NCBI GenBank assembly: GCA_963663355.2
Contig: CAXXKS010000005.1
Span: forward strand, 61,033-85,032
DNA: 24,000 nucleotides
Source: Alphaproteobacteria bacterium
GTDB taxonomy: Bacteria > Pseudomonadota > Alphaproteobacteria > UBA2966
Direction: 5' to 3'
The translations under genes and the position numbers were made by a program. Position 1 is the first letter of the stretch. Each line of letters opens with the position of its first letter. The notes below the pieces were generated by a model that saw only the letters and a list, made by a program, of their open reading frames with translations, made no database searches and had not been told where the DNA came from. Positions 868-22,702 of this stretch are shown piece after piece.

Positions 868-1404
868 CTACTTGATCACGGTGACCCCGCGCCGGTTCTG
901 CGCCCACGCTTCCTCGTTGGATCCCGGAACCTCCGGCCGCTCTTTGCCGAAGCTGATGACCTCGACCCGCTCGGCCGAAACTCCGAACGCGACGAGATAG
1001 TCTCGAACGGCGGACGCGCGCCGCTGACCGAGCGCCAGATTGTACTCCCGCGTCCCACGCTCGTCGCAGTGCCCCTCGATCGTGACCGTCACGCTCGGAT
1101 ACCGCATCAGCCACTTGGCTTGAAGGTCGAGGGTGGCCTGCGCCTCGGGCTTCAGATCGTACTTGTCGAAATCGAAGAAGACGCGGTCGCCGACGTTGAC
1201 CACGAAGTCGGCACTGGACCCGGGCTCGGGTCCCGCCGGCCTCGCCGGTTCCACGACCTTCGGAGCCGGCGCACTTTCCACCTTGGGGGGTGGAGGCGGT
1301 GCGGCGGCGCCCGAACCGGACGCCTCGCCGGTCTCTTCCGGGGCCGTCGCGCAAGCGGCAACGAACGAGAGCGCGGCGATTGCTATGAATGCCTTAAGAC
1401 GCAT
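868..1404 (-). CDS. pal: Peptidoglycan-associated lipoprotein Pal
   Basis: Track ORF 868..1476 trimmed to the internal ATG at 1404, which has AAGGAG 6 nt upstream. The product starts MRLKAFIAIAALSFVAAC (lipoprotein signal with lipobox Cys). It ends in an OmpA-like domain (FDFDKYDLKPEA, TIEGHCDERGTREYNLALGQRRA, NRRGV). Position after tolB supports the call. Confidence 0.93.
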   Translation of the reverse strand: MRLKAFIAIAALSFVAACATAPEETGEASGSGAAAPPPPPKVESAPAPKVVEPARPAGPEPGSSADFVVNVGDRVFFDFDKYDLKPEAQATLDLQAKWLMRYPSVTVTIEGHCDERGTREYNLALGQRRASAVRDYLVAFGVSAERVEVISFGKERPEVPGSNEEAWAQNRRGVTVIK

Positions 1405-1559
1405 CGAAAACTCCTTTACGGTGCACCGCGGCGCGCGGGGACCGTAGCAGACATCGGAAAGGTACGGCGTCCGCACGGCGAATGCAGCAACCGCGCTCGG
1501 TCCCTCCTGAAGAGCCCAACAGTCTGTAAATCCGTGGAATTCTTACGATTCCAGCGGCG

Positions 1560-1588
1560 AATATAATAGCATCCCACTATCGAATCAA
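1560..1588 (-). promoter_or_regulatory. Candidate sigma70-type promoter for pal
   Basis: This is the only AT-rich patch in the 172-nt tolB-pal spacer. Minus strand reads TTGATT (1588-1583), 17 nt spacer, TATATT (1565-1560). The -35 overlaps the last tolB codons. Motif match only, no expression data. Confidence 0.3.
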
Positions 1589-2932
1589 GGGGGGCGGACT
1601 CGGCGGCGACCAGGCGGGATCCGACGCCTGCGTCGGCGTCACGATACGCCGCTCGTTGTGGCCCGTGAGATCGACCGAATAGAGCCACGTCTCCCCGCCC
1701 GAGCCGTCGTCCCGCGTGGGCCGCTGCCGAAAGAACATCAGAACCCGGCCGTTCGGGGCCCAAGTGGGTCCCTCGTCGAGAAAGCTTTCCGTCAGCAGGC
1801 GCTCGCCGGTGCCGTCGGGGCGCATCACGCCGATGAAGAAACGTCCGTGGGTGAACTTGGTGAACGCGATGAGGTCGCCGCGCGGCGACCACACCGGCGT
1901 CGCGTAGCGGCCGCCGCCGAAACTGATGCGGCGGATGTCGCGGCCGTCCGCGGCCATCACGTAGAGCTGCTGGCTTCCGCCGCGGTCCGAGTTGAACGTG
2001 ACCCGCGAGCCGTCGGGGGAATAGGAAGGCGACGTGTCGATCGCCTCGTCCCGCGTCAACCGCGCGATCCTCCGGGTTCGCAGATCCATCGTGTAGATGT
2101 CGGAGTTGTCGCCCCGGATGAAGCTCATGACGACCTTGTTGCCGTCGGGCGAGAACCGCGGCGCGAAGGTCATGCCCGGAAAGTCTCCGAGGACTTCCTG
2201 CTGCCCGGTGTCGATGTTGTAGATGAACACCCGCGGCGTGCCCTGCCGGTAGGACAGATACGTGATTTCCTGCGAGGTTGGGGAGAACCGGGGAGTGAGG
2301 ACCAAGTGAACGCCGTCCGTCAGAAAGCGGTTGTGGGCACCGTCCTGGTCCATGATGGCGAGCCGCTTGATCCGCGCGGTCTGCGGACCGGTTTCCGCGA
2401 CGTATACGATCCGCGTATCGAAATAACCGGCTTCTCCCGTCAGCCGCTGGTAGATCGCGTCGCTGATCAGGTGCGCGATCCGGCGCCGGTTTTGAGGAGC
2501 GGTAGAGTACGCCAGCCCGACCATCTGCTGGCCGGCGAACACGTCCCAGAGCCGGAATTCGACGCGCAGCCTGCCGTCCTCCAGCATGCCCGCCGCGCCC
2601 GTCACCAGCGCCTGCGCGTCGATCGCCCGCCAATCCGCGAAACGGGGCCGGACCTTCATCTCCGCTGGCGCCTGGATGAACGCCCCGCGGTCGATGGGCC
2701 GGAACAGGCCCGACCGCTCGAGGTTGCGGGCCACGACGTCCGCGATGTCGCGCGCCGCCTCCCGGCCGCCTGCGTCCTCCGCGTGAAACACGCTGACCGC
2801 GATGGGGAGCGGATCGACCACGCCCCGGGTGATATCGATCTCGAGGACGGCGGACGCCGGGGTCGCCGCGAGGACGACGGCCGCCGCCGCCAAGGGAGCC
2901 GCCGCGCACCTGAGGATCGACGAGACGCGCAT
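1577..2932 (-). CDS. tolB: Tol-Pal system periplasmic beta-propeller protein TolB
   Basis: 451 aa with signal peptide [28 protein letters not shown]. It has a TolB N-domain followed by propeller blades with recurring SPDG-type motifs ([39 protein letters not shown]). It starts 4 nt after the tolA stop. Confidence 0.95.
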
Positions 2933-2936
2933 GCGG

Positions 2937-3785
2937 CTAACCGAGCATTCTGCTCGGATCGAACGTGAGCTCGATCTCGCGCCATCGGCTGTACTTGGCG
3001 AGGGGCAGCATCTTGAACGGCTGGCATTTCCGAACCGCGCGAACGGCGCTTTCCGCCGCCGCCCGGAAAAACGGATCGCCCGCCAGCCGCCCCTCGTCGA
3101 CGATCCGCGGCGCGTCGCGCAGGGATCCGTCCTGATTGAGAAAGATGCGAATCGTCACGACGAGATCCTCCGCGTAACGCGCCCCCGCCGGAAGGTTCCA
3201 GCAGTCCTCGATCCGCGCTCTGAGAGCATCTACCTCCGACAATGTCAACGGCTGCCCCTCGAGGGGCTGGGCGTCCGGCGACGTGATCTCGGACGGCGCC
3301 TCGGGGGTCTCGGGCGCCGACCGCTCGCGGGGCGTCTTGTCGATCAGCGCCGCGATCCGGTCGGCGTCGAAATCGTACTTCTTCGACGCCGCGCGCTTGG
3401 GCGGTTCGGGCTTCGCCTCCGGGGCCTTCCTGGGTGGCGGCGGCTTGCGCCTGGGCTTGGCGACCTTCTTGGGCGGCTTGGGCTTGGGCATCGTCTCGGG
3501 AACGACGGCCGCGACCTCCGTCTCGGGTTCCGGCGGGGGCGGGGGCGCTTCGACCGGCTTCGGCGGCGCGGGTCTTCGCCGGGGGTTCGGCGGGGGCTTG
3601 TCTTCCTTCGCCGGTTCCGGCTTCGGACGCGCCGCCCTGGTTTCCTCGGAGATCGTCACGAGCTCGACGACGACGGGCTGCTCGGCCAGTGCCGGGTCCG
3701 GACGCCACCACTCGGGCAGGCCCACGAAACCGACCCACAAGGCCGTCGCGTGGATGGCGGCGGATATGAAAATCCCCTTGCGCAA
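2937..3785 (-). CDS. tolA: Cell envelope integrity protein TolA
   Basis: 282 aa. N-terminal TM helix ([20 protein letters not shown]), a long Pro/Lys/Glu/Ala-rich linker ([35 protein letters not shown]...) and a C-terminal TolA/TonB-like globular domain. It sits between tolR and tolB. Confidence 0.88.
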
Positions 3786-3791
3786 CGTCCG

Positions 3792-4250
3792 CTACCGCTC
3801 GCGCGCTCCTGAAACGTCGGTTCTCGCCGTGATGAGCGCCACCCGCGAAAAACCGGCCTGGTTGATGGTCCCCATGACTTCCATGACGCGCCCGTAGGGA
3901 ACGCCCCGGTCGCCGCGCACGAATATTCGAATGTCCGGCTTGTTGCCCGAGATGGCGATCAATCTCGGAACGAGGTTGCCGAGCTCGATCGCGGTCTCCT
4001 GAAGGAACAGCCCGCCCTGTCCGTCGATGCTCACGGCGAGGGGTTCGTCCTGCCCCTGAACGACTCCGGCCTTCGTCTTGGGCAGATCGACCTGAACGCC
4101 GACGGTCAGCAGGGGCGCCGTCACCATGAACACCACGAGCAGCACCAGCATGACGTCGACGAACGGCGTGACGTTGATCTCGCTCATCACCTTGAAGTCG
4201 CGCCCCGCGCGAAGGCGCGGCCCGGAACGGCCCCGGATCACGACAGCCAT
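3792..4250 (-). CDS. tolR: Tol-Pal system protein TolR (ExbD/TolR family)
   Basis: Track ORF 3792..4853 trimmed to ATG at 4250: MAVVIRGRSGPRLRAGRDFKVMSEINVTPFVDVMLVLLVVFMVTAPLL... The conserved TM Asp is present (PFVDVML). The ATG overlaps the tolQ TGA (minus-strand TGATG, 4252-4248). The upstream part of the track ORF is tolQ read in a wrong frame. Confidence 0.92.
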   Translation of the reverse strand: MAVVIRGRSGPRLRAGRDFKVMSEINVTPFVDVMLVLLVVFMVTAPLLTVGVQVDLPKTKAGVVQGQDEPLAVSIDGQGGLFLQETAIELGNLVPRLIAISGNKPDIRIFVRGDRGVPYGRVMEVMGTINQAGFSRVALITARTDVSGARER

Positions 4251-4990
4251 CAGCTCGTCCACCCGCGCTCGTCGAGCTGGCGGGACAGGATGGCCAGGAA
4301 TTCGCCGGCAAAACTCTCGAGACGATTCGCGTAGCGCGAAATATCGGTCGAGAACTTGTTGTAGGCGACGACGGCGGGAATGGCCGCGACCAGCCCCAGC
4401 GCCGTGGCGAACAGCGCCTCGGCGATACCGGGAGCGACGACGGCCAGGCTCGTGTTCTTGGTCAGGGCGATGGCCTGAAAGCTGTTCATGATTCCCCAGA
4501 CCGTCCCGAACAATCCGATGAAGGGCGCGGTCGATCCGACCGTCGCGAGAAAGCCCAGATAGCGTTCGAGATTCTCCACCTCCCGGTTCATGGTCAGTTG
4601 CATGACCTGTCCGATCCGATCCCGAATGCCGGCATGGAGCGTCTGTTCGCTCCCGGCGCCTCCTCCGGTGCTGCGCCGCCACTCCCGCATGGCCGCCGCG
4701 AACAGGAAGGCCATGGGATGGTCCGGCCGGCCGCCGATCCGGTCGTAGAGGTCCTCCAGAGAACCTCCCGACCAGAACGACTCCTCGAAACCGTCCGCTT
4801 GCGCCACCAGCCGGCGCAGCCTCAGCATCTTCTCGACGATGATCGCCCAGCACCAGAACGAAGCCAGGATCAACACGACAAGCACGGCCTTGACGACGAC
4901 GTCGGCACGCAGAAACAGGCCGACCAGGGAAAGGTCCTCGGCCCCCACGGAGCCCGCCAGAACGGCTGCGTCTATCGCTTCTTTTTCCAT
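4250..4990 (-). CDS. tolQ: Tol-Pal system protein TolQ (MotA/TolQ/ExbB channel family)
   Basis: 246 aa with family signatures FLATVGSTAPFIGLFGTVWGIMNSF and VAPGIAEALFATALGLVAAIPAVVAYN. It is flanked by ybgC and tolR. Confidence 0.95.
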   Translation of the reverse strand: MEKEAIDAAVLAGSVGAEDLSLVGLFLRADVVVKAVLVVLILASFWCWAIIVEKMLRLRRLVAQADGFEESFWSGGSLEDLYDRIGGRPDHPMAFLFAAAMREWRRSTGGGAGSEQTLHAGIRDRIGQVMQLTMNREVENLERYLGFLATVGSTAPFIGLFGTVWGIMNSFQAIALTKNTSLAVVAPGIAEALFATALGLVAAIPAVVAYNKFSTDISRYANRLESFAGEFLAILSRQLDERGWTS

Positions 4991-8451: not shown

Positions 8452-8553
8452 CGGTTCACGTTCTGTATTTGGTCGTGAGCTTCGGGCCTTATACCAGATA
8501 TTGTGGGACGCGGCAGCATATTGGCCGGCCGGAACGAGGCGGCGACGCTCGGC

Positions 8554-9408
8554 TTAAGCGAGCAATGTGGCGGATTTTTGACCGCTCCGCCCCGGGGACT
8601 CGGGCTCGGCGGGCATGAGGTGCCCGCCCTTGCGGACGGGCGCGACGAACGTGGCGAGCCCGCTCGAGTCGTCGGTTTCGACGTAGACGCCACACAGCGT
8701 CGCGCGGCCCGACGCCGGAGTGAACCGTCCGCCGGGAACCTTGGTCACGAACCTGTTGATCGGCTCTTCCTTCTCCATCCCGATGACCGAGTCGTAGTCG
8801 CCGCACATTCCGAGATCGGTCTGGTAGGCGGTCCCGCCCGGGAGAACGCGGGCGTCCGCCGTCGGCACGTGAGAATGCGTTCCCACGGCCATCGAAGCCC
8901 GTCCGTCGACGTAGTGGCCCATGGCGTTCTTCTCGCTCGTCGCCTCTCCGTGCACGTCGATGACGACGGCATCGGCCTCGCGCCCCAAGGGGAGGGGAGC
9001 GAGTTCCTCGTCGACGCGCGCGAAGGGATCGTCGAGCGGGTCCATGAACACCCGACCCATCACCTGAATGACGGCGACCTTTCGATCTCCCGGCAATCCG
9101 TACAATCCCACGCCGCGGCCGGGCGCGCCCGAAGGGAAGTTGCACGGCCGCAACAGGCGCTCCTCGTTGTCGATGAAGGTGAATATCTCCTTCCGATCCC
9201 AGACGTGATTTCCGGTGGTAATCACGTCCACGCCGGCATCGAAGAACTCGTCGCAGATCTCGCGGGTGATGCCGAAACCGCCAGCCGCGTTCTCCCCGTT
9301 GGCGATCACGAAATCGAGCTTCAACCGCTCCCGCAAGGCCGGAACGTGCTCGCGCACGACTTTCCGTCCTGCGCGGCCGACCACGTCGCCTACGAACAGG
9401 AGCCTCAT
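8554..9408 (-). CDS. YmdB-family metallophosphoesterase (2',3'-cyclic-nucleotide phosphodiesterase-like)
   Basis: Track ORF 8554..9828 trimmed to ATG at 9408. Motifs include MRLLFVGDVVGRAG, ANGENAAGGFG, TTGNHVWD, IDVHGEATSEK and GTHSHVPTAD (calcineurin-like metal-binding motifs in the YmdB arrangement). The ATG overlaps the upstream TGA (ATGA, 9408-9405). Confidence 0.85.
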   Translation of the reverse strand: MRLLFVGDVVGRAGRKVVREHVPALRERLKLDFVIANGENAAGGFGITREICDEFFDAGVDVITTGNHVWDRKEIFTFIDNEERLLRPCNFPSGAPGRGVGLYGLPGDRKVAVIQVMGRVFMDPLDDPFARVDEELAPLPLGREADAVVIDVHGEATSEKNAMGHYVDGRASMAVGTHSHVPTADARVLPGGTAYQTDLGMCGDYDSVIGMEKEEPINRFVTKVPGGRFTPASGRATLCGVYVETDDSSGLATFVAPVRKGGHLMPAEPESPGRSGQKSATLLA

Positions 9409-9983
9409 GCGAATGCCCTCGCGAAAACCTCGGTGACGACCCAGTCCAGGCGCTCGTCCGTTTCGCCGTGCGGAACGGCATCGACCTCCTGCCCGGCATA
9501 AGCGAACCCAACCGCCAGACAGGCCCCCGCGCCACGGCGGAGCGAACGGATCGTGCGGTCGTAGTAGCCGCCTCCGTATCCCAATCTGTACCCGTGCCCG
9601 TCGAAAGCCAGCAGCGGCACGATCAGCACCTCCGGCACGACGACCGGCGCGCCGGGAGCGGGTTCGCTGGTCCCGAACCCGGCCCTCGTCAACGGATCGC
9701 CGGGAGTCCATTCGCGAAATTCCAGGGGACGTTCGCGCCCGGCGATGGCAGGAAGGGCGCAGCGCGCGCCCCGCCGTTTCAGCTCCGTCAGCAACGGCCG
9801 CGGATCCAGTTCGCCCCGGATCGGCCAATAGCCCGACACGGCGCGCGGCCCCGACGCCCCTGTCCGATCGAGGAAATTGTTCGCCGCGAGCTCCGCGGCG
9901 TTCGGCGGCGCGGAGTCGCGCAGTCCCAGGCGCCGGGTCCGGGCAATTCCCCGCAAGGACGCCTTGGCGGATACCTCGTCCAT
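9405..9983 (-). CDS. 5-formyltetrahydrofolate cyclo-ligase
   Basis: Track ORF 9405..10325 trimmed to ATG at 9983 (192 aa). Motifs include YWPIRGELDP and the hallmark PLLAFDGHGYRLGYGGGYYDRT. The discarded extension covers the structured RNA region. Confidence 0.88.
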   Translation of the reverse strand: MDEVSAKASLRGIARTRRLGLRDSAPPNAAELAANNFLDRTGASGPRAVSGYWPIRGELDPRPLLTELKRRGARCALPAIAGRERPLEFREWTPGDPLTRAGFGTSEPAPGAPVVVPEVLIVPLLAFDGHGYRLGYGGGYYDRTIRSLRRGAGACLAVGFAYAGQEVDAVPHGETDERLDWVVTEVFARAFA

Positions 9984-9996
9984 GACATCAAGAATA

Positions 9997-10180
9997 CGCG
10001 ACGCCCGTCCGCGCGTGCAGGCCGCGTTCGTTCGCGCGGCCGGCGGGACCGCCGCGGCCGTCGCCGGAGCCGATCCTCTGTGGCCTGCGTGTGCAGGTGG
10101 GCGCCGCGTACCGGAACCGCGGTCCCGGCAGAGGCAGCTCCCGATAGACCGGTTTGACCCCAGGGACGATACCGTCGACG
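9997..10180 (-). ncRNA. ssrS: Candidate 6S RNA (ends approximate)
   Basis: A 226-nt non-coding gap lies between zapA and the 5-FCL gene, the classical zapA-ssrS-ygfA position. The minus strand folds by eye into a 6S-like shape. Closing stem: CGAC-GGUAU-CGUCC (10179-10166) pairs with GGACG-GGC-GUCG (10010-9999). Apical hairpin: CCUGC-ACAC-GCAGG (10097-10084). Helix GGAGC-UG-CCUCUG pairs with CAGAGG-AUCG-GCUCC. A small 3'-side hairpin GCCGCG-CGAACGAA-CGCGGC (10040-10021) resembles the 3' bubble hairpin of 6S RNAs. No covariance-model score is available. Confidence 0.55.
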
Positions 10181-10209
10181 CGCCGGGCAGAACCCGCCGT
10201 TCCTTCAAG

Positions 10210-10560
10210 TTAGGCGCTCCGCAACCGATCGGCAATATCGTCGAGACGCGCCGCCGCCCTGTCGATCTCGGCGTTCGCCGCCGAGACGGCCCCTTCCGCG
10301 GCTTCGTCGCCGGCCCGTTTCGCATCGACGATGTCCGCCTTGAGGCGGGCGACGGCGTTGCGGGACTCGGACAACTCGTCCGCGAGGAGCAGCCCGGCCA
10401 TGAGCATGAGGCGCGCCTCTCCGACCTGGCCGATGGATTGAATCAGTTCCGTGACGGTGCGGCCCAAATAGTCCGCCAGCTCGAGCAGGTGCTCCTCTTC
10501 GCCGTCCTCGCAGGCGATGAGGTATTCCCGGCCGTTGATCGTCACCGCCACCTGGGCCAT
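10210..10560 (-). CDS. zapA: Cell division protein ZapA
   Basis: 116 aa beginning MAQVAVTINGREYLIACEDGEEEHLLELADYL, then GEARLMLMAGLLLADEL and a C-terminal coiled coil. This is the typical ZapA layout. Confidence 0.88.
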   Translation of the reverse strand: MAQVAVTINGREYLIACEDGEEEHLLELADYLGRTVTELIQSIGQVGEARLMLMAGLLLADELSESRNAVARLKADIVDAKRAGDEAAEGAVSAANAEIDRAAARLDDIADRLRSA

Positions 10561-10561
10561 G

Positions 10562-10834
10562 TCAGGCGCTCAGGACTTCGCGGAGCCGGCCGATCGTCCC
10601 GTCCAGTCGATCCCGAACGGTGTCCGTCACGCTCTCCAGGACGCGGTATTCGACGTTCGCGTTCCGCAGCGCCGCCGTGAGCGCATCCTTCTCCGCCTGC
10701 ACCGACTCTAGCCGGGACTTCAGGGACTCGATTTCGGAATCGAGCGGCTCGACCCGCTCGGCGATCGCCCGTTCGAGCCGCTCGACCGACTGTTCCAAGC
10801 GTCCGGCGGCCAAACCCTCCTCGTGCGCGGCCAT
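10562..10834 (-). CDS. DUF4164-like coiled-coil protein (ZapB-like cell-division accessory candidate)
   Basis: Track ORF 10562..10873 trimmed to ATG at 10834, which has GGAGTGGGAAG just upstream; the 10873 start has no SD. The ~90-aa product is entirely heptad-like (LEQSVERLERAIAERVEPLDSEIESLKSRLESVQAEKDAL). The stop is 1 nt before the zapA ATG. The family name is from memory. Confidence 0.65.
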   Translation of the reverse strand: MAAHEEGLAAGRLEQSVERLERAIAERVEPLDSEIESLKSRLESVQAEKDALTAALRNANVEYRVLESVTDTVRDRLDGTIGRLREVLSA

Positions 10835-10982
10835 CGTTCTTCCCACTCCGTCCGGCGACAGGCCAACAGACAATTTGTCGTTCTATCGAAAGGGGTTATC
10901 TGATGACCTTCGCAGACAGCATAGGCTCGACTCCGCCGAGCCGTCAACCGCGGGACGGCCGGACGCCGACGAGACGACGCGG

Positions 10983-13476: not shown

Positions 13477-13505
13477 TTGTCGGGCAATACCCCCTGGGCT
13501 ATTGT
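13477..13505 (+). promoter_or_regulatory. Candidate sigma70-type promoter for the OmpA-like/MotA-like/MotB-like operon
   Basis: TTGTCG (13477-13482), 17 nt spacer, TATTGT (13500-13505), in the 127-nt gap after the IMPase gene. Each hexamer matches consensus at 4 of 6 positions. Motif only. Confidence 0.3.
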
Positions 13506-13567
13506 GCCTGACCGTTGAACGGGCGAGGGGGATGGCCGCAAAACATATAACGGAGTGGGATCGGGTC

Positions 13568-14482
13568 ATGTCGTTTTGCGTGCCGTCGGGGCAGGTTGCC
13601 CACAATACAAGGTTTCGTTCCGCCGCCCCCGTACTGGGGACGCTGGCGTTTTTCTGCTGGCCGGCGGCGGAGTCCCTGGCGCAGTCCACCGTGGTCATCG
13701 GGGGCAGCGGCAGGCCCGCGGTGGAAGTGAATCTCGACGTACTCGACGCGCCGCGGGGCCAACCCTCGAGCACGGGCCGGCGGCTTCTCATGCCGGGAGA
13801 GCGGCCCGGAGACGTCGTGCGGCTGCGCCTTCCGGGGTCCGGGACGCAGGGCCCCGCCGCTTCGGAGGCGTTGCCTCCGGCCTTGCGGCCCCCTGCCCCC
13901 GCGCCCCGAATTCGCGTGGCGCCGCCGGCTGCGGAACCAATGCCCGCCCTGTCCCCTCCGATTGTGACGCAACGCGCCGTCCAGGCGCCGGCTCCAGCGG
14001 TGGCGCGCGTGATGCCGCCGGCCCCTCCTCCACCCCGGCCCGCCTCGCAGGCGCCGTCGCCCGCTCCGGCCCGGGCAGTCGTCAAGGCGCCGACGCCGTC
14101 GCCCGCCGCACAACCCGGCCGCGCGGAGCGCCAGGTCGCGGCGTTGCCCAAGGTCCCGTTGCTGCCGGCCGGCGGACAGGTCCTCCGCATCGATTTCCTC
14201 GGCGCGAGCACGCGGCTGACGCCGGACGCCGAACGAAAACTGGCGTCTCTTGCCGCGACGATGGTGGAGAGCGACGGCCGTCTGCAATTGAAGGCGTACG
14301 CGGGCGGGACCGGCGAAACCTTCAGCGCGGCCCGGCGCCTCTCGTTGTCGCGGGCGCTCGCGGTACGTTCGTTCCTCATCGAACAGGGAATACGAAGCAC
14401 ACGGCTCGACGTTCGGGCCCTGGGGCGCGCGGTGGACAACGAGCCGCCCGAACGCGTCGACATCGTTCTCCTGATCCAGTGA
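13568..14482 (+). CDS. Secreted proline-rich OmpA-like (peptidoglycan-binding domain) protein
   Basis: Start chosen at ATG 13568 (alternatives 13532 and 13460). MSFCVPSGQVAHNTRFRSAAPVLGTLAFFCWPAAESLA|QS looks like a Sec signal peptide. The middle ~90 aa are Pro/Ala-rich (PPALRPPAPAPRIRVAPPAAEP...PPAPPPPRPASQAPSPAP). The C-terminus is OmpA/MotB-like (LRIDFLGASTRLTPDAERKL, FSAARRLSLSRALAVRSFLIEQGI, ERVDIVLL), but the usual 'TD' of the PG-binding pocket reads YAGGTGE. Confidence 0.75.
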   Translation: MSFCVPSGQVAHNTRFRSAAPVLGTLAFFCWPAAESLAQSTVVIGGSGRPAVEVNLDVLDAPRGQPSSTGRRLLMPGERPGDVVRLRLPGSGTQGPAASEALPPALRPPAPAPRIRVAPPAAEPMPALSPPIVTQRAVQAPAPAVARVMPPAPPPPRPASQAPSPAPARAVVKAPTPSPAAQPGRAERQVAALPKVPLLPAGGQVLRIDFLGASTRLTPDAERKLASLAATMVESDGRLQLKAYAGGTGETFSAARRLSLSRALAVRSFLIEQGIRSTRLDVRALGRAVDNEPPERVDIVLLIQ

Positions 14483-14510
14483 CCACGGCCGAATCCAGAG
14501 GTAACGGACC

Positions 14511-14537
14511 GAGTGGGAGCGAACGGCGCTCCCGCTC
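14511..14537 (+). other. Intercistronic stem-loop between operon genes 1 and 2
   Basis: GAGUGGGAGCG-AACGG-CGCUCCCGCUC: 11-bp stem (one G:U) with a 5-nt loop. It lies 29 nt after the gene-1 stop and 23 nt before the gene-2 ATG. No U-tract follows. Confidence 0.5.
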
Positions 14538-14559
14538 GGGTATCGCTCCGGTCGCCCGC

Positions 14560-15702
14560 ATGACCCGCCCGCAGAGTTTCCTGATGCGGATGAGCCTTTT
14601 CGTCGTGGCCGTCGTCGGCGTGGCGGCGCTTCTCGCCGAGCAGCTGGAACGCTCGTTCATGGCCAACCCCGGCCTCAACGGGTTGATTCTCGGCGTGTTG
14701 CTGTTCGGCGTCATCTATGTGTTCCGGCGGGTCCAGGTCCTGGGACCCGAGGTCGAGTGGGCCGAACGCTTTCGCCATCGGGAAGCGGGCGTGTCGGTGC
14801 ATCGGTCCCCCACCCTCCTGGCCCCGATGGCGACGATGCTCGGCGATCAGCCCAGCCATCGCTGGCTTTCGACATTGTCGATGCGCTCCCTGCTCGACGG
14901 CATCGCGTCGCGGCTCGAAGAATCCCGGGAAATGGCGCGGTATCTGATCGGCCTTCTGATCTTTCTCGGCCTTCTGGGCACGTTCTGGGGTCTTCTTCAA
15001 ACGGTGACGGCGGTCGGCGACACGATCCGCGACCTCACGGCGGAAACGGACGACCCTGCCGGCCTGTTCGGGACGTTGAAGGCGGGACTGGAAGCGCCGC
15101 TCGCCGGAATGGGGACGGCCTTTTCATCGTCCCTGTTCGGTCTCGCCGGCTCCCTCGTGCTGGGGTTCCTGGAGCTCCAGGCGGGTCAGGCGCAGAACCG
15201 GTTCTACAACGAGCTGGAAGAATGGCTTTCCAGCATCACCCGACTCTCCTCGGGCATCGGCGTCGGGGACGGCGAGCAATCCGTGCCCGCGTACGTGAGC
15301 GCGCTGCTGGAGCAGACGGCCGAGAGCCTGGATACGCTGCAACGAACGATCGCCCGCGGCGCCGAGAGCAGCGCGTCGGCGAACTCCACCCTGCTCTCCC
15401 TGTCGGACCGCCTGGCGACGCTGACCGATCAAATGAAATCGGAACAGGACCTCATGGTCAGGCTCGCCGAAAGCCAGATGGAAATGCAGCCGGTCCTGGA
15501 ACGGCTGGCGGACGTCAGATCGGCGGAGCCGGCGATTTCCCTGGACGAGGCGAGCCGCGCGCATCTGCGCAACCTCGACGTGTACGTCAAGCGCTTGCTG
15601 GAGGAGTCCGGTCCTGCCCGCGAGCACCTCATTCAGGAGTTTCGCGGCGAGATAAAACTGCTCGCCCGGACGATGGCGGCGCTCGGGCGCGACTCACGCT
15701 AG
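14560..15702 (+). CDS. MotA/TolQ/ExbB-family ion-channel (stator A-type) subunit with long coiled-coil C-terminal tail
   Basis: The real gene is the last 380 codons of track ORF 13555..15702, from ATG 14560 (ATGs at 14584 and 14590 are also possible). Four hydrophobic helices: ~aa 11-28, 38-56, 126-148 and 182-205. The last two carry family signatures LIFLGLLGTFWGLLQTV and LAGMGTAFSSSLFGLAGSLVLGF, followed by QNRFYNELEEWL as in ExbB/TolQ. Residues ~206-380 are heptad-rich (LLEQTAESLDTLQRTIA, LSDRLATLTDQMKSEQDLMVRLAESQMEMQPVLERLA). Confidence 0.8.
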   Translation: MTRPQSFLMRMSLFVVAVVGVAALLAEQLERSFMANPGLNGLILGVLLFGVIYVFRRVQVLGPEVEWAERFRHREAGVSVHRSPTLLAPMATMLGDQPSHRWLSTLSMRSLLDGIASRLEESREMARYLIGLLIFLGLLGTFWGLLQTVTAVGDTIRDLTAETDDPAGLFGTLKAGLEAPLAGMGTAFSSSLFGLAGSLVLGFLELQAGQAQNRFYNELEEWLSSITRLSSGIGVGDGEQSVPAYVSALLEQTAESLDTLQRTIARGAESSASANSTLLSLSDRLATLTDQMKSEQDLMVRLAESQMEMQPVLERLADVRSAEPAISLDEASRAHLRNLDVYVKRLLEESGPAREHLIQEFRGEIKLLARTMAALGRDSR

Positions 15703-15747
15703 CGGCAGGGGAACGACGCCGTGCCCGCGCTCGCCAATCGAGGAAGA

Positions 15748-17025
15748 ATGCGGCGCGGCGACGATATCTGGCCGGGGTTCGTCGATGCACTCGCGACCCT
15801 GCTTCTGGTCATCATCTTCGTTCTCGCCGTCTTCATGATCACGCACTTCTTTCTCAGCCAGGCCCTGACGGGGCGGGACGAGGCCCTCCAGAGATTGAAC
15901 CGGCAGCTCGCGGAAATCTCGGAACTTCTCGCGCTGGAACGCCAGACCAACGAGGATTTGCGCCTCAACGTCGCCCAATTGTCGGCGACGCTGCAGGAGT
16001 CGGCGCGCGAACGCGAGCGACTCGCCCTCGATCTGAAGGGGGTGGAATCCACGCTGGCGTCGGCCGTGGAGACCGCCGCCGCGGACCGCGAAACCATCGA
16101 GGCGCAGCTCGGCGAGATCGAGCGTCTCAAGCGCGACATCGCCGCACTGAAGTCGGTGCGGCAGGTTCTGGAGCGGCAGGTGGACTCGCTCGCCGGGTCC
16201 CTGAACGAGTCCGGGGCGCTCGCCGCCCGTCTTCGCGACAGGAGCAAGGCGCTCGAGGCGCGACTCGCCGACGAACGGGAACGGACCCTGCTGGCCCAAA
16301 AGGATCTGGAAGAACGGGACCTCCGGCTTTCGGAGCTCCAGCGTCTGTACAACGAAAGCAGCGACTCCCTGAACAGGGAAATGGACCTGTCCGCCGAGGC
16401 CCGGGCGCAGGTCGCGCTTCTGAATCAGCAGCTCGATGCCGTGCGCCGGCAACTGGCGCGCCTCAATGCCGCCCTGGAGGCGGCCGAGGCGAAGGACGAG
16501 GAGCAGCAGGCCGTGATCGCCGATCTCGGCAGGCGGCTCAACGTGGCGCTCGCCCAGAAGGTCGAGGAGCTCTCGCGCTACCGGTCGGAATTCTTCGGGC
16601 GCCTGCGCGAAGTGCTGGGAGACAGGAGGGACATCCGCGTGGTCGGCGACCGGTTCGTCTTCCAGTCGGAAGTCCTGTTCGCGTCCGGCTCCGCGGAGAT
16701 CGGCATCAACGGGCAATTGCAACTCGCCCAGCTCGCGAGAACCCTGCTGGAGATCGCGGACTCGATTCCGCCGGAAATCTCCTGGGTGCTGCGCGTGGAC
16801 GGCCACACCGACGTCGTCCCGATCTCTACCCCCAGGTTTCCCTCGAATTGGGAGCTGTCCACGGCCCGGGCCGTCTCCGTGGTCAAGTTCCTCGTGGATC
16901 AGGGCGTGCCGCCGGCACGCCTCGCGGCGGCGGGGTTCGGCGAATTCCAACCCCTGGACTCGCGCGCCGACGAAATCGGCCATCGCCGCAACCGGCGCAT
17001 CGAGCTGAAACTGACCGAGCGCTGA
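15748..17025 (+). CDS. MotB-like stator B-type subunit: TM Asp helix, ~240-aa coiled coil, OmpA-like peptidoglycan-binding domain
   Basis: Start at ATG 15748 (GAGGAAG just upstream); a GTG at 15721 is an alternative. The N-terminus [29 protein letters not shown] resembles MotB/TolR/ExbD, with Asp (codon 15784-15786) at the conserved proton-binding position. Residues ~40-280 are continuous heptad-like sequence. The C-terminus is canonical OmpA-like ([54 protein letters not shown]). Confidence 0.85.
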
Positions 17026-17038
17026 CGGAAGATCGGGA

Positions 17039-17061
17039 CCGCGCGGGGAAGCCCCGCGCGG
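17039..17061. terminator. GC hairpin between convergent stops (candidate bidirectional terminator)
   Basis: CCGCGCGGGG-AAG-CCCCGCGCGG, a 10-nt perfect inverted repeat. It sits in the 37-nt gap between the MotB-like TGA (17025) and the ABC exporter TAG (17063). No flanking U-tracts. Confidence 0.4.
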
Positions 17062-17062
17062 A

Positions 17063-18823
17063 CTACCCCGCCGCCACGGCCGCGTCCGCGTTCTCCGACG
17101 TCTCGAACTGCAGCCGGGCCAATCGCGCGTACAGTCCGTCCTGCGCCATCAGTTCCCCATGCGTCCCGCTGGCCACAACGTCGCCGGCCTCCATCACCAC
17201 GATCCGGTCGGCCTTGAGCACCGTCGCCAGACGATGGGCGATGACGACCGTCGTTCTCACGTCCATGAGCGCCTCGAGCGCCTGCTGAACCATCCGTTCG
17301 TTCTCCGCGTCGAGCGCGCTGGTCGCCTCGTCCAGGAGAAGTATCGTGGGATTGCGCAGTATCGCGCGGGCGATGGAAATCCGCTGGCGCTGGCCGCCGG
17401 ACAGCCGGGCGCCGCGCTCGCCCAGGAACGTTCCGTACCCGTCCCGCAGCCGGTCGATGAACTCGGCCGCTCCCGCGGCCTCCGCCGCAGCGCGGACCTC
17501 CCCGTCGGTCGCCTCGGGACGCCCGTAGCGGATATTGGCCCAGACGTCGTCGGCGAAAATGACTGGATCCTGGGGCACCAGGCCGATGCGCCGCCGCACG
17601 TCCTCGGGCCTGGCGTCCCGCAAGTCGACGCCGTCGATGGAAACCCGCCCCGACTCCGGGTCATAGAACCGGAGAAGGAGCTGGAACACCGTCGTCTTTC
17701 CCGCGCCCGACGGACCCACGAGCGCGAGCCGTTCGCCCGGCGAGACCGACAGGGAGTACGAGTCCAGCGCGCGGACGCCGGGCCGGGTCGGGTACCGGAA
17801 GGTGACGCGGTCGAAACGGATCGCGCCGCGCGCGGGCCGCGGCAGGCCGACGGGCGATTCCGGAGTGGAGATCGGGGACTCCGCCGCCAGCAGCTCTATC
17901 AGGCGTTCGGCCGCCCCGGCGGCGCGTTGAAGGTCGCCGTAGACTTCCGACAGCGAGCCGACGGAACCGGCCACCATGACCGCGTAGAAGACGAACGCGG
18001 CGAGTTGGCCGCCCGTCGTCGTACCCGCGATCACGTCGCGCGCGCCGATCCACAGGACGATGTCGACCGCGCCGAAGGCGAACAGGATGACGATGCCGGT
18101 GAGCAGGGCGCGGGACCTGATCTGGCGAAGGGCCGCCGCATAGGCGGCCTCGACGATTCCGCCGAATCTCCGGCGATTGGCGTCCTCGCGGTTGAATGCC
18201 TGCACCGTCCGCACCGCGTAAAGGGACTCGCCGGCGAACGCGCCGACGTCCGCCACCCTGTCCTGGCTCTCGCGGGACAGTTGCCTGACGCGGCGGCCGA
18301 AAAAGACGATGGGCAGCACGACCAGGACGACGATCAGGAAGACGAGACCCGTCAGCTTGGGGCTGCTGACAACCAGCAGCGCCGACGCGCCGACGAAGAT
18401 CAACATGTTGCGCAAGGCCACGGAAGCGCTCGACCCCACGACGGTCTGGATGAGCGTGGTATCCGTCGTCAGCCGGGAGAGGATCTCTCCCGTGCGCGTG
18501 GACTCGAAGAACTCGGGGCTGAGGCCGACGATGTGCTCGTAGACCTTGCGGCGGATGTCCGCGACGACCCGCTCGCCCAGGGACGATACGGCGTAGTACC
18601 GGCAGTAGGTCGCCGCGGCGAGCAGCGCGACGATTCCCAACAGCGCGAGGAAGTACTGATCGAGAACCGTGCTGTCCGCGCTGAACCCGAAATCGACGAC
18701 GCGGCGAAGCGCCTGACCGATGGCGAGGACGGCTCCGGCGGCGACGAGGAGAGCGACGAGGGCCGCGACGACACGCAGGCGGTAGGGCCGAAGGAACCCG
18801 GCAACGTGCCGAAGGACCTCCAT
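17063..18823 (-). CDS. ABC exporter, fused permease/ATPase (MsbA-like, ABCB-type)
   Basis: Track ORF 17063..18958 trimmed to ATG at 18823 ([27 protein letters not shown]...), 586 aa. The N-terminal half is a six-helix type-I exporter domain. The NBD has Walker [15 protein letters not shown], signature [14 protein letters not shown] and Walker [13 protein letters not shown]. Substrate is unknown. Confidence 0.9.
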
Positions 18824-19002
18824 ATTGCCGCCTTTCGGCCTGTCTTCGATGAACGGTTTCCTGCTCACGCCACGATACCGAAAATCCCGGAGTCCCGAAG
18901 GCCACGGAGGCCGCCGCCGGGGGTCGCAGACCCTAGTATCCGCCCGAAGGCGGCGCAATTGCCCGCGCCGTCCGCGCGCCCTCGAATGCCGGCCGATTCA
19001 CC

Positions 19003-21783: not shown

Positions 21784-21824
21784 CCGCAGGCGCCGGTCCG
21801 TGCCGCCCGGACCGGCGCCTGCGG
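21784..21824. other. Perfect 17-bp inverted repeat / stem-loop in a divergent intergenic region
   Basis: CCGCAGGCGCCGGTCCG (21784-21800), TGCCGCC loop, CGGACCGGCGCCTGCGG (21808-21824). There are no mismatches and no U-tract on either side. It lies 89 nt from the DUF1192 ATG and 98 nt from the DUF1013 ATG. Confidence 0.7.
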
Positions 21825-21922
21825 GGCGCGTCTCCGCGGCCGGACGAATTCGCTTGTGCGGGAAGCGCAAAATGGACATGGTGCCGCAAATCCACCGCGG
21901 CCGATCTCGAGAGGAGCTTTTC

Positions 21923-22702
21923 ATGCCGCTGCCGTTGATGCCGAAGGCGACCGCCGTGTGGCTGATCGACAACACGTCGCTGACGTTCGATCAGATCGCC
22001 GAGTTTTGCGGCCTGCATCCCCTCGAAGTGAAAGGCATCGCGGACGGCGAGGTGGCGATCGGCATCCAGGGGCGCGACCCCGTCCCGGACGGCGAATTGA
22101 CGCGGGAGGAGATCGAGCGGTGCGTGGCCGATCCGGGCGCGCGGCTGAGCATGGCGGCCTCCGACATTCCCCGGCCGAAGGCGCGGACGAGCGGACCCAA
22201 GTACACGCCGGTCACCAAGCGCCAGGACCGCCCCAACGCCATCATGTGGCTGCTCCGCTATCATTCGGAGCTGTCCGACGCCCAGATCTGCCGGCTCGTC
22301 GGCACCACCAAGCCGACCATCAATTCGGTGCGCGAGCGCACCCACTGGAACATGGCGAACCTCAAGTCGGTCGACCCGGTGTCCCTGGGAATGTGCTCGC
22401 AGGTCGAGCTCGACGAGGCGGTGACCAAGGCCCGTGCGCGGCTGCGGTCGCGGGAGGCGCGGGAACGCGAGGCCCCGGCGTCGACGGCGGCCGCGCCCGA
22501 GCCCGCCGCCGCGCTCCGGCCGGAGCCGGCGGCGCCGGAACCGCCCGCCGAACCGCAGGATCACAGCGTGGAGAGCGTCTTCGGCGCCGCCCCCGAACCG
22601 GCGCCCGCCGAGCCCGAGCCGACGACGTCGGACGTGTTCCGGACCCCGGCACGGTCGGGCGGCGAGGACCCGCCCCCCGAGGAGGAACAGCCCGCGGGCT
22701 AG
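21923..22702 (+). CDS. DUF1013-family protein (alphaproteobacterial; putative DNA-binding / cell-cycle-related regulator)
   Basis: Track ORF 21800..22702 trimmed to ATG at 21923 (GAGGAG 6 nt upstream). MPLPLMPKATAVWLIDNTSLTFDQIAEFCGLHPLEVKGIADGEVA...KYTPVTKRQDRPNAIMWLLRYHSELSDAQICRLVGTTKPTINSVRERTHWN matches my memory of DUF1013. The C-terminal ~70 aa are low-complexity Ala/Pro/Glu. The functional label is recollection only. Confidence 0.7.
   Translation: MPLPLMPKATAVWLIDNTSLTFDQIAEFCGLHPLEVKGIADGEVAIGIQGRDPVPDGELTREEIERCVADPGARLSMAASDIPRPKARTSGPKYTPVTKRQDRPNAIMWLLRYHSELSDAQICRLVGTTKPTINSVRERTHWNMANLKSVDPVSLGMCSQVELDEAVTKARARLRSREAREREAPASTAAAPEPAAALRPEPAAPEPPAEPQDHSVESVFGAAPEPAPAEPEPTTSDVFRTPARSGGEDPPPEEEQPAG

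Follow-up and report, generated by a model that had tools for sequence, protein, structure and literature searches.

The stretch considered here (the window: 24,000 nt of Alphaproteobacteria bacterium, assembly GCA_963663355.2, contig CAXXKS010000005.1, positions 61,033 to 85,032, G+C content 68.8%) contains a unit of three genes on one strand, below called genes 1, 2 and 3. A first-pass annotation had described the unit as an orphan operon encoding a secreted OmpA-like protein, a channel of the MotA/ExbB type and a MotB-like anchor. Reading of the open reading frames (ORFs) agrees with this arrangement, with the intergenic gaps and with the position assigned to the Asp codon of gene 3. Genes 1 and 2 are separated by 77 nt, and genes 2 and 3 by 45 nt from the ATG at 15748 or 18 nt from the GTG at 15721 (Table 1). 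A chance ORF pattern is ruled out, because thousands of homologues are conserved: searches with genes 2 and 3 at E<=1e-5 gave at least 8000 matches each, and the matches of gene 2 at E<=1e-30 form 581 clusters at 50% identity. The unit is preceded by thiE, efp and an IMPase-family gene and followed by a convergent ABC exporter. The remaining genes of the window are housekeeping genes.

Table 1. Positions of the three-gene unit, its flanking elements and other features of the window
Feature	Coordinates	Strand	Basis
Promoter-like element TTGTCG-17 nt-TATTGT, 5' of gene 1	13478-13506	+	sequence reading and conservation
Gene 1, secreted protein of 304 residues	13568-14482	+	Pfam OmpA, signal peptide, G+C at third codon positions (GC3), start conservation
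Gene 2, A subunit of 380 residues, MotA/ExbB/TolQ/ZorA class	14560-15702	+	hidden Markov models, AlphaFold2 fold, conserved residues
Gene 3, B subunit of 434 residues (alternative ATG start 15748)	15721-17025	+	NF006543, Pfam OmpA, invariant residues, Foldseek
Codon of the transmembrane Asp22 of gene 3 (numbered from GTG 15721)	15784-15786	+	alignment of homologues
GC-rich hairpin in the convergent interval between gene 3 and the ABC exporter	17039-17061		stem reading and folding
ABC exporter	17063-18958	-	TIGR02204 'MsbA_rel', 862 bits vs cut-off 780
pal, tolB, probable tolA, tolR, tolQ	868-4990	-	domain and family annotation
Probable 6S RNA (ssrS)	10042-10196	-	Rfam RF00013

The product of gene 2 has four transmembrane (TM)-like segments (residues 7-25, 37-55, 128-146 and 186-206), as had been proposed, and the motifs quoted earlier as MotA/TolQ/ExbB signatures are present. 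The cytoplasmic loop between TM2 and TM3 is about 65 residues long (61-125). The cytoplasmic tail of about 175 residues forms a helical hairpin with two long helices (244-322 and 330-377) in the AlphaFold2 model, whose mean pLDDT is 84.8. The NCBIfam models of MotA, PomA, TolQ and ExbB gave no match to gene 2 at E<=0.01; the ZorA subfamily models alone match, weakly. The ZorA1 and ZorA3 profiles of PADLOC match with E-values between 9e-13 and 4e-8; those of ZorA3 fall wholly inside the TM core. Both profiles match all 46 members of the family alignment, which was built from diverse homologues. When the family profile was compared with PDB sequences, the sole motor subunit found was 8vvn_C (E 6e-4), which is the Shewanella ZorA of type I. 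This alignment pairs LGLLGTFWGL of gene 2 with LGVIGTFMGL of ZorA (LGxxGTFxGL), and GMGTAFSSSLFGLAGS with GAKIAFLTSVWGVALS (AFxxSxxGxAxS). A PDB search with the single sequence of gene 2 returned only apolipoprotein A-I, which was rejected as a coiled-coil false positive.

All 50 PDB matches listed by Foldseek for the model of gene 2 are A subunits (TolQ, ExbB, ZorA, MotA and PomA, probability 0.85-1.00), and for the TM core the top-ranked among these are TolQ and ExbB. The family alignment contains seven invariant residues, G137, G140, T141, G144, P180, M184 and F188, and S189 and S191 are conserved in at least 90% of the members. T141 and S189/S191 appear to correspond to T147 and S184 of ZorA, which contact Asp26 of ZorB (PMC11946911). 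Gene 2 is a four-TM A subunit, and its closest relative by sequence is ZorA (E. coli type I, 8QYD; Shewanella, 8VVN) rather than MotA, TolQ or ExbB. The HLRNxD module of the tail is present three to five times in tandem in longer homologues (574-614 residues; P0121, P0150), so the length of the tail varies by module duplication. Another homologue, P0123, is extended at its C-terminus by about 170 Pro-rich residues in place of the module repeats.

Gene 3 is a full member of the PRK09039 family (NF006543 to NF006546). The NCBIfam model NF006543 (PRK09039.1-2, 'peptidoglycan-binding protein') has a cut-off of 305 bits and scores gene 3 at 453.9; the name of the family serves only as an annotation label, and the model makes no statement about a partner channel. 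The MotD model of NCBIfam matches at E 7e-33 and the MotS model matches too. The start of the protein had been described as MotB/TolR/ExbD-like. It has a single TM segment (23-41). At the start of the TM helix lies a motif, WPGxVD (W17, P18, G19, V21 and D22), that is invariant in alignments of 22 and 24 homologues, and the motif with its Asp22 is kept also in the orthologues from Sinorhizobium meliloti and from a low-GC lineage. The type, however, is that of MotB and ZorB, with a wall-anchoring OmpA domain; the ExbD/TolR domain PF02472 has no match in gene 3. The canonical OmpA-like peptidoglycan-binding domain recognised at the C-terminus is borne out by Pfam OmpA (PF00691, 50.8 bits) and by the wall-contact residues D364, N376, L379, R383, R425 and R426, which are invariant and are found in the S. 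meliloti and low-GC orthologues as well. The residues of the motifs GHTD, NWELSxxRA and NRRIE are invariant. In Foldseek comparisons this domain aligns with the periplasmic domains of MotB-like proteins, MotS and PomB with a TM-score of 0.8 and a root mean square deviation of 2.3-2.6 A. In the AlphaFold2 model the TM helix is followed immediately by about 140 residues of coiled coil and continues to residue 182; a break at 183-190 is followed by a second helix (191-299) and then by the OmpA-like domain. The whole stalk, about 250 residues, is periplasmic, and it is possible that the modelled break allows it to fold back as a hairpin. The homologues are 342-570 residues long, with large insertions and deletions in the middle of the coiled coil. 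By its domain content and conserved residues, gene 3 is a B subunit of the MotB/ZorB type and not of the TolR/ExbD type.

The product of gene 1 starts with a signal peptide (cleavage at about SLAQ/S), followed by the motif VVIGGSGRP, a Pro/Ala-rich linker and a C-terminal degenerate OmpA-like domain (Pfam OmpA, 36.5 bits, residues 210-287). The start codon ATG 13568 and the GGAG before it are conserved in the closest genome, and the rise of GC3 from about 13580 backs the coding assignment. An in-frame signal peptide ending in AxA/Q is present in all 16 orthologues considered, usually with VVIGGSGRP after it. The earlier description of gene 1 as an exported OmpA-like protein therefore stands as to export and the Pfam match, but the domain is degenerate: the family motif LQLxAYAxG...ARRLSLSRALAVR...DRVD has neither the canonical Asp of GHTD nor the NRR of wall-binding OmpA domains. 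Neither a lipobox nor a barrel was found in gene 1. As a secreted OmpA-like accessory, it presumably resembles MotY of flagellar stators. The gene is kept in about 60 of the best 80 genome loci, about a quarter of the relatives being without it, and also in the distant low-GC lineage. Defluviicoccus, MarineAlpha12 and S. meliloti lack it. The public gene calls of its homologues (P0396-P0515) are mostly 99-190 residues long and contain the C-terminal domain alone, omitting the in-frame conserved signal peptide and linker. Comparison of the reading frames indicates that start sites are systematically miscalled here, in sequence rich in G+C and in Pro/Ala.

A promoter-like motif had been reported upstream of the unit. 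The element TTGTCG-17-TATTGT is present and is base-for-base identical in the nearest relative, Alphaproteobacteria bacterium UBA2966; the IMPase-proximal spacer just 5' of it contains a 55-nt indel between the two genomes and is not conserved. However, the element scores below the strict sigma-70 consensus, and a scan with this consensus reported no promoter for the unit. Between the element and the start of gene 1 lies a 27-nt block, ACGGGCGAGGGGGATGGCCGCAAAACA (13519-13545), that the nearest relative has in unchanged form. A leader element and an alternative start (ATG 13532) are possible readings of the block; an Rfam search of the gene 1 leader, including this block, gave no match. The hairpin noted after the last stop codon has a perfect 10-bp GC stem and a 3-nt loop (-29.2 kcal/mol, z -2.4). 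It has no T run and therefore was not reported by the terminator scan. It is a possible bidirectional terminator.

The survey of genome loci covered the best 80 and further related ones, about 90 in total. The best 80 come from Rhodospirillales, Acetobacteraceae, marine alphaproteobacterial metagenome-assembled genomes and one such genome of Sphingomonadales. Genes 2 and 3 are adjacent in all of the best 80 loci where the contig allows this to be seen, and in nearly all of the 90. In most of the best 80 the pair is preceded by efp and the IMPase gene, and efp-IMPase-(gene 1)-gene 2-gene 3 is an order repeated in lineages ranging from Rhodospirillales to Sinorhizobium. S. meliloti and low-GC lineages have in common with the unit the wider synteny thiE-efp-IMPase-(gene 1)-gene 2-gene 3-ABC exporter-rpmE. 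The convergent MsbA-related exporter adjoins gene 3 in about 13 of the 80, and also in S. meliloti (L085 8056-9870, minus strand). The closest genome is that of UBA2966, with 89% identity in gene 2. By its relatives, the organism of the window is Rhodospirillales-like and does not belong with Rhizobiales. In the S. meliloti chromosome (its sequence was found filed as a plasmid in PLSDB) the order is thiE-Sel1 protein-IMPase-gene 2 orthologue-gene 3 orthologue-ABC exporter-rpmE, without gene 1, and the gene 2 orthologue is 45% identical. In the low-GC lineage (37% identity) the order efp-IMPase-gene 1-gene 2-gene 3 is kept and the genes overlap. Identity thus drops from 89% to about 35-45% (Sinorhizobium, low-GC lineage) while synteny persists. 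Synteny across orders, together with identity that tracks taxonomic distance, is the pattern of a core gene and not of a defence island. On this gene-order evidence the unit is not an orphan operon, as first described. It is a core cluster, inherited vertically, whose locus is conserved among Rhodospirillales, Acetobacteraceae, marine alphaproteobacterial lineages and Sinorhizobium.

One lineage is an exception. In it the block DUF456-gene 2-gene 3 lies beside the flagellar hook genes flgE, flgD and fliK; in a sister contig the same block is beside topA. These flagellar genes occur within 6 kb of the pair in two of the 90 loci, both from this lineage, and tolQ, tolR or tolB is next to the pair in none of the 90. 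The absence of linkage to flagellar, Ton, gliding or Zorya effector genes, observed first in the window, thus extends to the 90 loci, apart from the two flagellar cases, and the orthologues are not consistently embedded in flagellar, TonB or Zorya loci. A distant homologue of gene 2, P0227 (L090 6001-8674), is followed by genes for a soluble protein of 350 residues with the signalling domain of methyl-accepting chemotaxis proteins and for a STAS protein, and not by a gene 3-like anchor; the channel may thus have an alternative set of partners here. In public databases the homologues are named MotA, MotB, ExbB/TolQ or hypothetical protein, and the members of the clusters carry generic names only.

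The S. meliloti genes are numbered SMc03996 (thiE2), SMc03995 (the Sel1 protein RgsF) and SMc03994 (suhB); from gene order, the motor pair would bear the numbers SMc03993 and SMc03992. It is situated two genes downstream of rgsF (L085 3430-4575). RgsF is an essential periplasmic Sel1/TPR protein of the growth pole and septum that co-purifies with RgsA and Tol proteins. No RgsF-like gene is present in the window. The Rgs growth and septation factors were considered as a possible identity of the unit and rejected, as none of RgsA-S is MotA- or OmpA-like. A literature search found no functional study of the gene 2/gene 3 family or of PRK09039, in line with the initial impression that no orthologue has been characterised. 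A survey of stators (mBio 2025) handles such pairs merely as generic ion transporters.

The motors MotAB, ExbBD, TolQR, GldLM, AglRQS and ZorAB are ion-driven, have 5:2 stoichiometry, and each powers a dedicated process. Support for an ion-coupled A/B motor comes from the invariant Asp, from the Thr/Ser filter, from the fold and from how strictly the two genes are paired, and the assignment of genes 2 and 3 to the 5:2 class, made in the first-pass annotation, is supported by homology, fold and residues. Our preferred interpretation, to which we give a probability of about 0.6, is that genes 2 and 3 form a 5:2 rotary motor that is driven by protons, is akin to MotAB and ZorAB and has a housekeeping role in Alphaproteobacteria. 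In the model that we infer from the observed homology, fold, invariant residues and gene order, a pentamer of gene 2 would enclose the pair of TM helices contributed by a gene 3 dimer, and protons would cross gene 2 at its Thr141/Ser189-191 filter and then bind to Asp22 in gene 3. The dimer would be fixed to peptidoglycan by the OmpA-like domains that end its long coiled-coil stalk of variable length. As gene 3 is a canonical wall-binding B subunit, it would be the fixed axle and the A ring would revolve about it, an arrangement shared with MotAB and ZorAB; proton flow would rotate the gene 2 ring together with the bundle of its cytoplasmic helical-hairpin tails. Since it is the A ring that would turn, and the cytoplasmic tail is the sole elaborated part of A, the output probably passes through the A subunit. 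Like that of ZorAB and MotAB, it would be delivered on the side of the cytoplasm or inner membrane, and not through a periplasmic arm of the TolA/TonB kind. Gene 1 would be a probably dispensable periplasmic accessory that positions or activates the stalk or the wall-binding domain of gene 3, cf. MotY with PomB.

The Tol and Ton systems belong to the same motor superfamily as the pair and share with the unit the envelope context and an OmpA-like periplasmic protein. A Tol-Pal-like tether, in which the pair would drive a periplasmic or outer-membrane output and gene 1 would act like Pal, pulling the wall and outer layers together, is the alternative that most needs to be weighed, and we regard it as rather unlikely. 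The parts, as noted from the outset, do parallel Tol-Pal: a channel, an Asp-bearing anchor and an additional secreted OmpA-like protein, the last accompanying the pair in many close loci and in the distant low-GC lineage. The long coiled coil of gene 3 could cross the periplasm, cf. domain II of TolA, and the S. meliloti pair is a near neighbour of a growth-zone factor that co-purifies with Tol proteins. However, gene 3 ends in an OmpA domain and not in an ExbD/TolR domain, no TM transducer like TolA or TonB is encoded nearby, and gene 1, which is not a lipoprotein, is not Pal-like: it has neither lipobox nor barrel, its OmpA motif is degenerate, and some lineages do without it. The inferred SMc03993 and SMc03992 do not occur in the available part of the Rgs pull-down lists. 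The core of gene 2 is nearer to ZorA than to TolQ. Indeed, the window has its own Tol motor, with a true TolR (PF02472, E 8e-28) and TolQ (E 8e-37) at 3792-4990, and in hhalign the gene 2 family aligns with this TolQ over 46 columns only; the earlier statement that the unit is distinct from it is correct. The Tol-Pal analogy is therefore weaker than the analogy with ZorAB and MotAB. The great length of the stalk and the presence of an additional OmpA-like protein could also suggest a purely structural role, that of a static tether or scaffold between the inner membrane and the wall in which ion conduction and motor activity have been lost, and the weak match of gene 2 to the generic MotA_ExbB family fits such divergence from active motors. 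On the other hand, the Asp, the Thr/Ser filter and the Gly/Pro-rich signatures of TM3-TM4 are invariant or nearly so down to 35% identity, which is hard to explain without an ion-coupled function, and the chance that the unit is a static tether seems slim.

Slimmer still is the chance that the pair is an accessory or alternative flagellar stator, a paralogue like MotCD or MotPS. The four-TM topology of the A subunit, the N-terminal TM Asp of the B subunit and its MotB-type OmpA-like domain are shared with MotAB and PomAB; gene 3 matches MotD and MotS and is closest in fold to MotB-like proteins, MotS and PomB; the homologues are publicly annotated as MotA or MotB; and in one distant lineage the pair adjoins flgE, flgD and fliK. 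However, the TM2-TM3 loop of MotA is about 100 residues long, and the shorter loop of gene 2 has no obvious torque-generating interface. Gene 2 is without a MotA or PomA model match, the long coiled coil of gene 3 is unlike stator linkers, no plug motif was detected in gene 3, the same block lies beside topA in the sister contig of the flagellar exception, and S. meliloti has a flagellar motA (SMc03022) separate from the pair. Least probable of all is a minimal or degenerate anti-phage system of the Zorya type. The pair resembles ZorAB in its A/B composition, and in both systems the B subunit has a TM Asp and the A subunit a Thr/Ser filter; gene 3 has, like ZorB, a dimer-type OmpA-like wall-binding domain; and gene 2 has, like ZorA, a C-terminal cytoplasmic helical tail whose length varies between lineages, here by module duplication. 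The ZorA and ZorB profiles are the best named matches for gene 2 and good ones for gene 3. However, in the PADLOC search of the unit these ZorA- and ZorB-like matches in genes 2 and 3 were the only ones: gene 1 had none and no zorC, zorD, zorE, zorF or zorG was found. The TM helices of ZorA number three and its tail, about 500 residues long, forms a 70-nm tube, and ZorB has its wall-binding domain fused directly to the TM helix without a linker (PMC11946911), whereas gene 2 has four TM segments and a much shorter hairpin tail, and gene 3 has the stalk of about 250 residues. Unlike Zorya, the unit includes a secreted partner, its neighbours are all housekeeping genes, and its synteny across orders with gradually falling identity is that of a core gene. 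Judged by the features that define these systems, both the flagellar and the defence readings fail.

Several observations weigh against the preferred interpretation of the pair as a housekeeping rotary motor. The Pfam check suggested at first held for OmpA, which matches genes 1 and 3, but MotB_plug (PF13677) gave no match in gene 3 at E<=0.01, and MotA_ExbB (PF01618) matches gene 2 with 21.3 bits (E 2.5e-4), just below the gathering threshold of 22.9. The Foldseek E-values of gene 2 are modest (3e-3 or weaker), with TM-scores of 0.3-0.57 normalised on the target. If extended, the stalk of gene 3 would span an estimated 25-37 nm (at 0.15 nm per residue), and the distance between inner membrane and wall in E. 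coli is about 9 nm (PMC11946911); as the extended stalk would be far longer than this, the geometry of gene 3 and the anchoring model are uncertain. The tail of the S. meliloti orthologue of gene 2 is shorter and divergent and lacks both HLRNxD and EIRLLARTIA. The tail motifs therefore do not occur throughout the family, and the case for a single conserved partner in the cytoplasm is weaker for it. Two distant homologues of gene 2 have no gene 3 downstream, one of them being followed by mraY. SMc03993 and SMc03992, as numbered from gene order, are absent from the available part of the essential-gene comparison table (PMC5929573), which suggests that the system is probably dispensable in rich medium. 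The literature search found no phenotype data for the pair.

Within the housekeeping-motor interpretation, our best guess for the physiological output is surveillance or maintenance of the envelope. More specifically, and tentatively, the unit may be a housekeeping counterpart of the ZorAB sensor of Zorya: a wall-anchored proton rotor that would report or act on the mechanical state of the envelope through its short rotating tail, with gene 1 as a periplasmic modulator. Such a unit would possibly be the evolutionary source of the ZorAB sensor.

Some other features of the window can be mentioned. The candidate 6S RNA is a full-length match to RF00013 (model positions 1-187) with 35.1 bits, below the gathering threshold of 46.4, and E 2e-5 in a search of 701 nt; at the gathering threshold it is not reported. 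It is situated between zapA (10210-10560) and the gene for 5-formyltetrahydrofolate cyclo-ligase, and zapA-ssrS-ygfA is a classic gene arrangement. The zapA gene in turn adjoins a gene with the ZapB-like domain DUF4164 (together 10210-10873, minus strand), and the gene of a TrcR-family cell-cycle regulator is located at 21800-22702 (plus strand). With tol-pal, ruvABC, zapA/DUF4164 and TrcR, the window is rich in housekeeping genes of division and the cell cycle. About 850 nt between yebC and the cyclo-ligase gene (8554-9400, minus strand) contain the ORFs 8489-9535 and 8554-9828, which have no Pfam or NCBIfam match and no clear GC3 signal.

The unit is kept at one locus across Alphaproteobacteria, including rhizobia, relatives of Brucella, acetic acid bacteria, and magnetotactic and marine lineages. 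It points to an unrecognised function, dependent on the proton motive force, in the envelope or at the interface between the envelope and the cytoplasm. Annotation of the family is a problem, as the names of the homologues are inconsistent and the calls of gene 1 are often truncated to the last 99-190 residues. The Asp22 codon, the duplicable tail modules, the variable stalk and the optional secreted partner are parts that can be tested in tractable species. The ZorA-like core of gene 2 offers a route to ask whether the sensor of Zorya arose from a housekeeping motor or gave rise to one. If the unit is indeed a housekeeping counterpart of ZorAB, it would represent a previously undescribed class of output for 5:2 motors in a major bacterial class.

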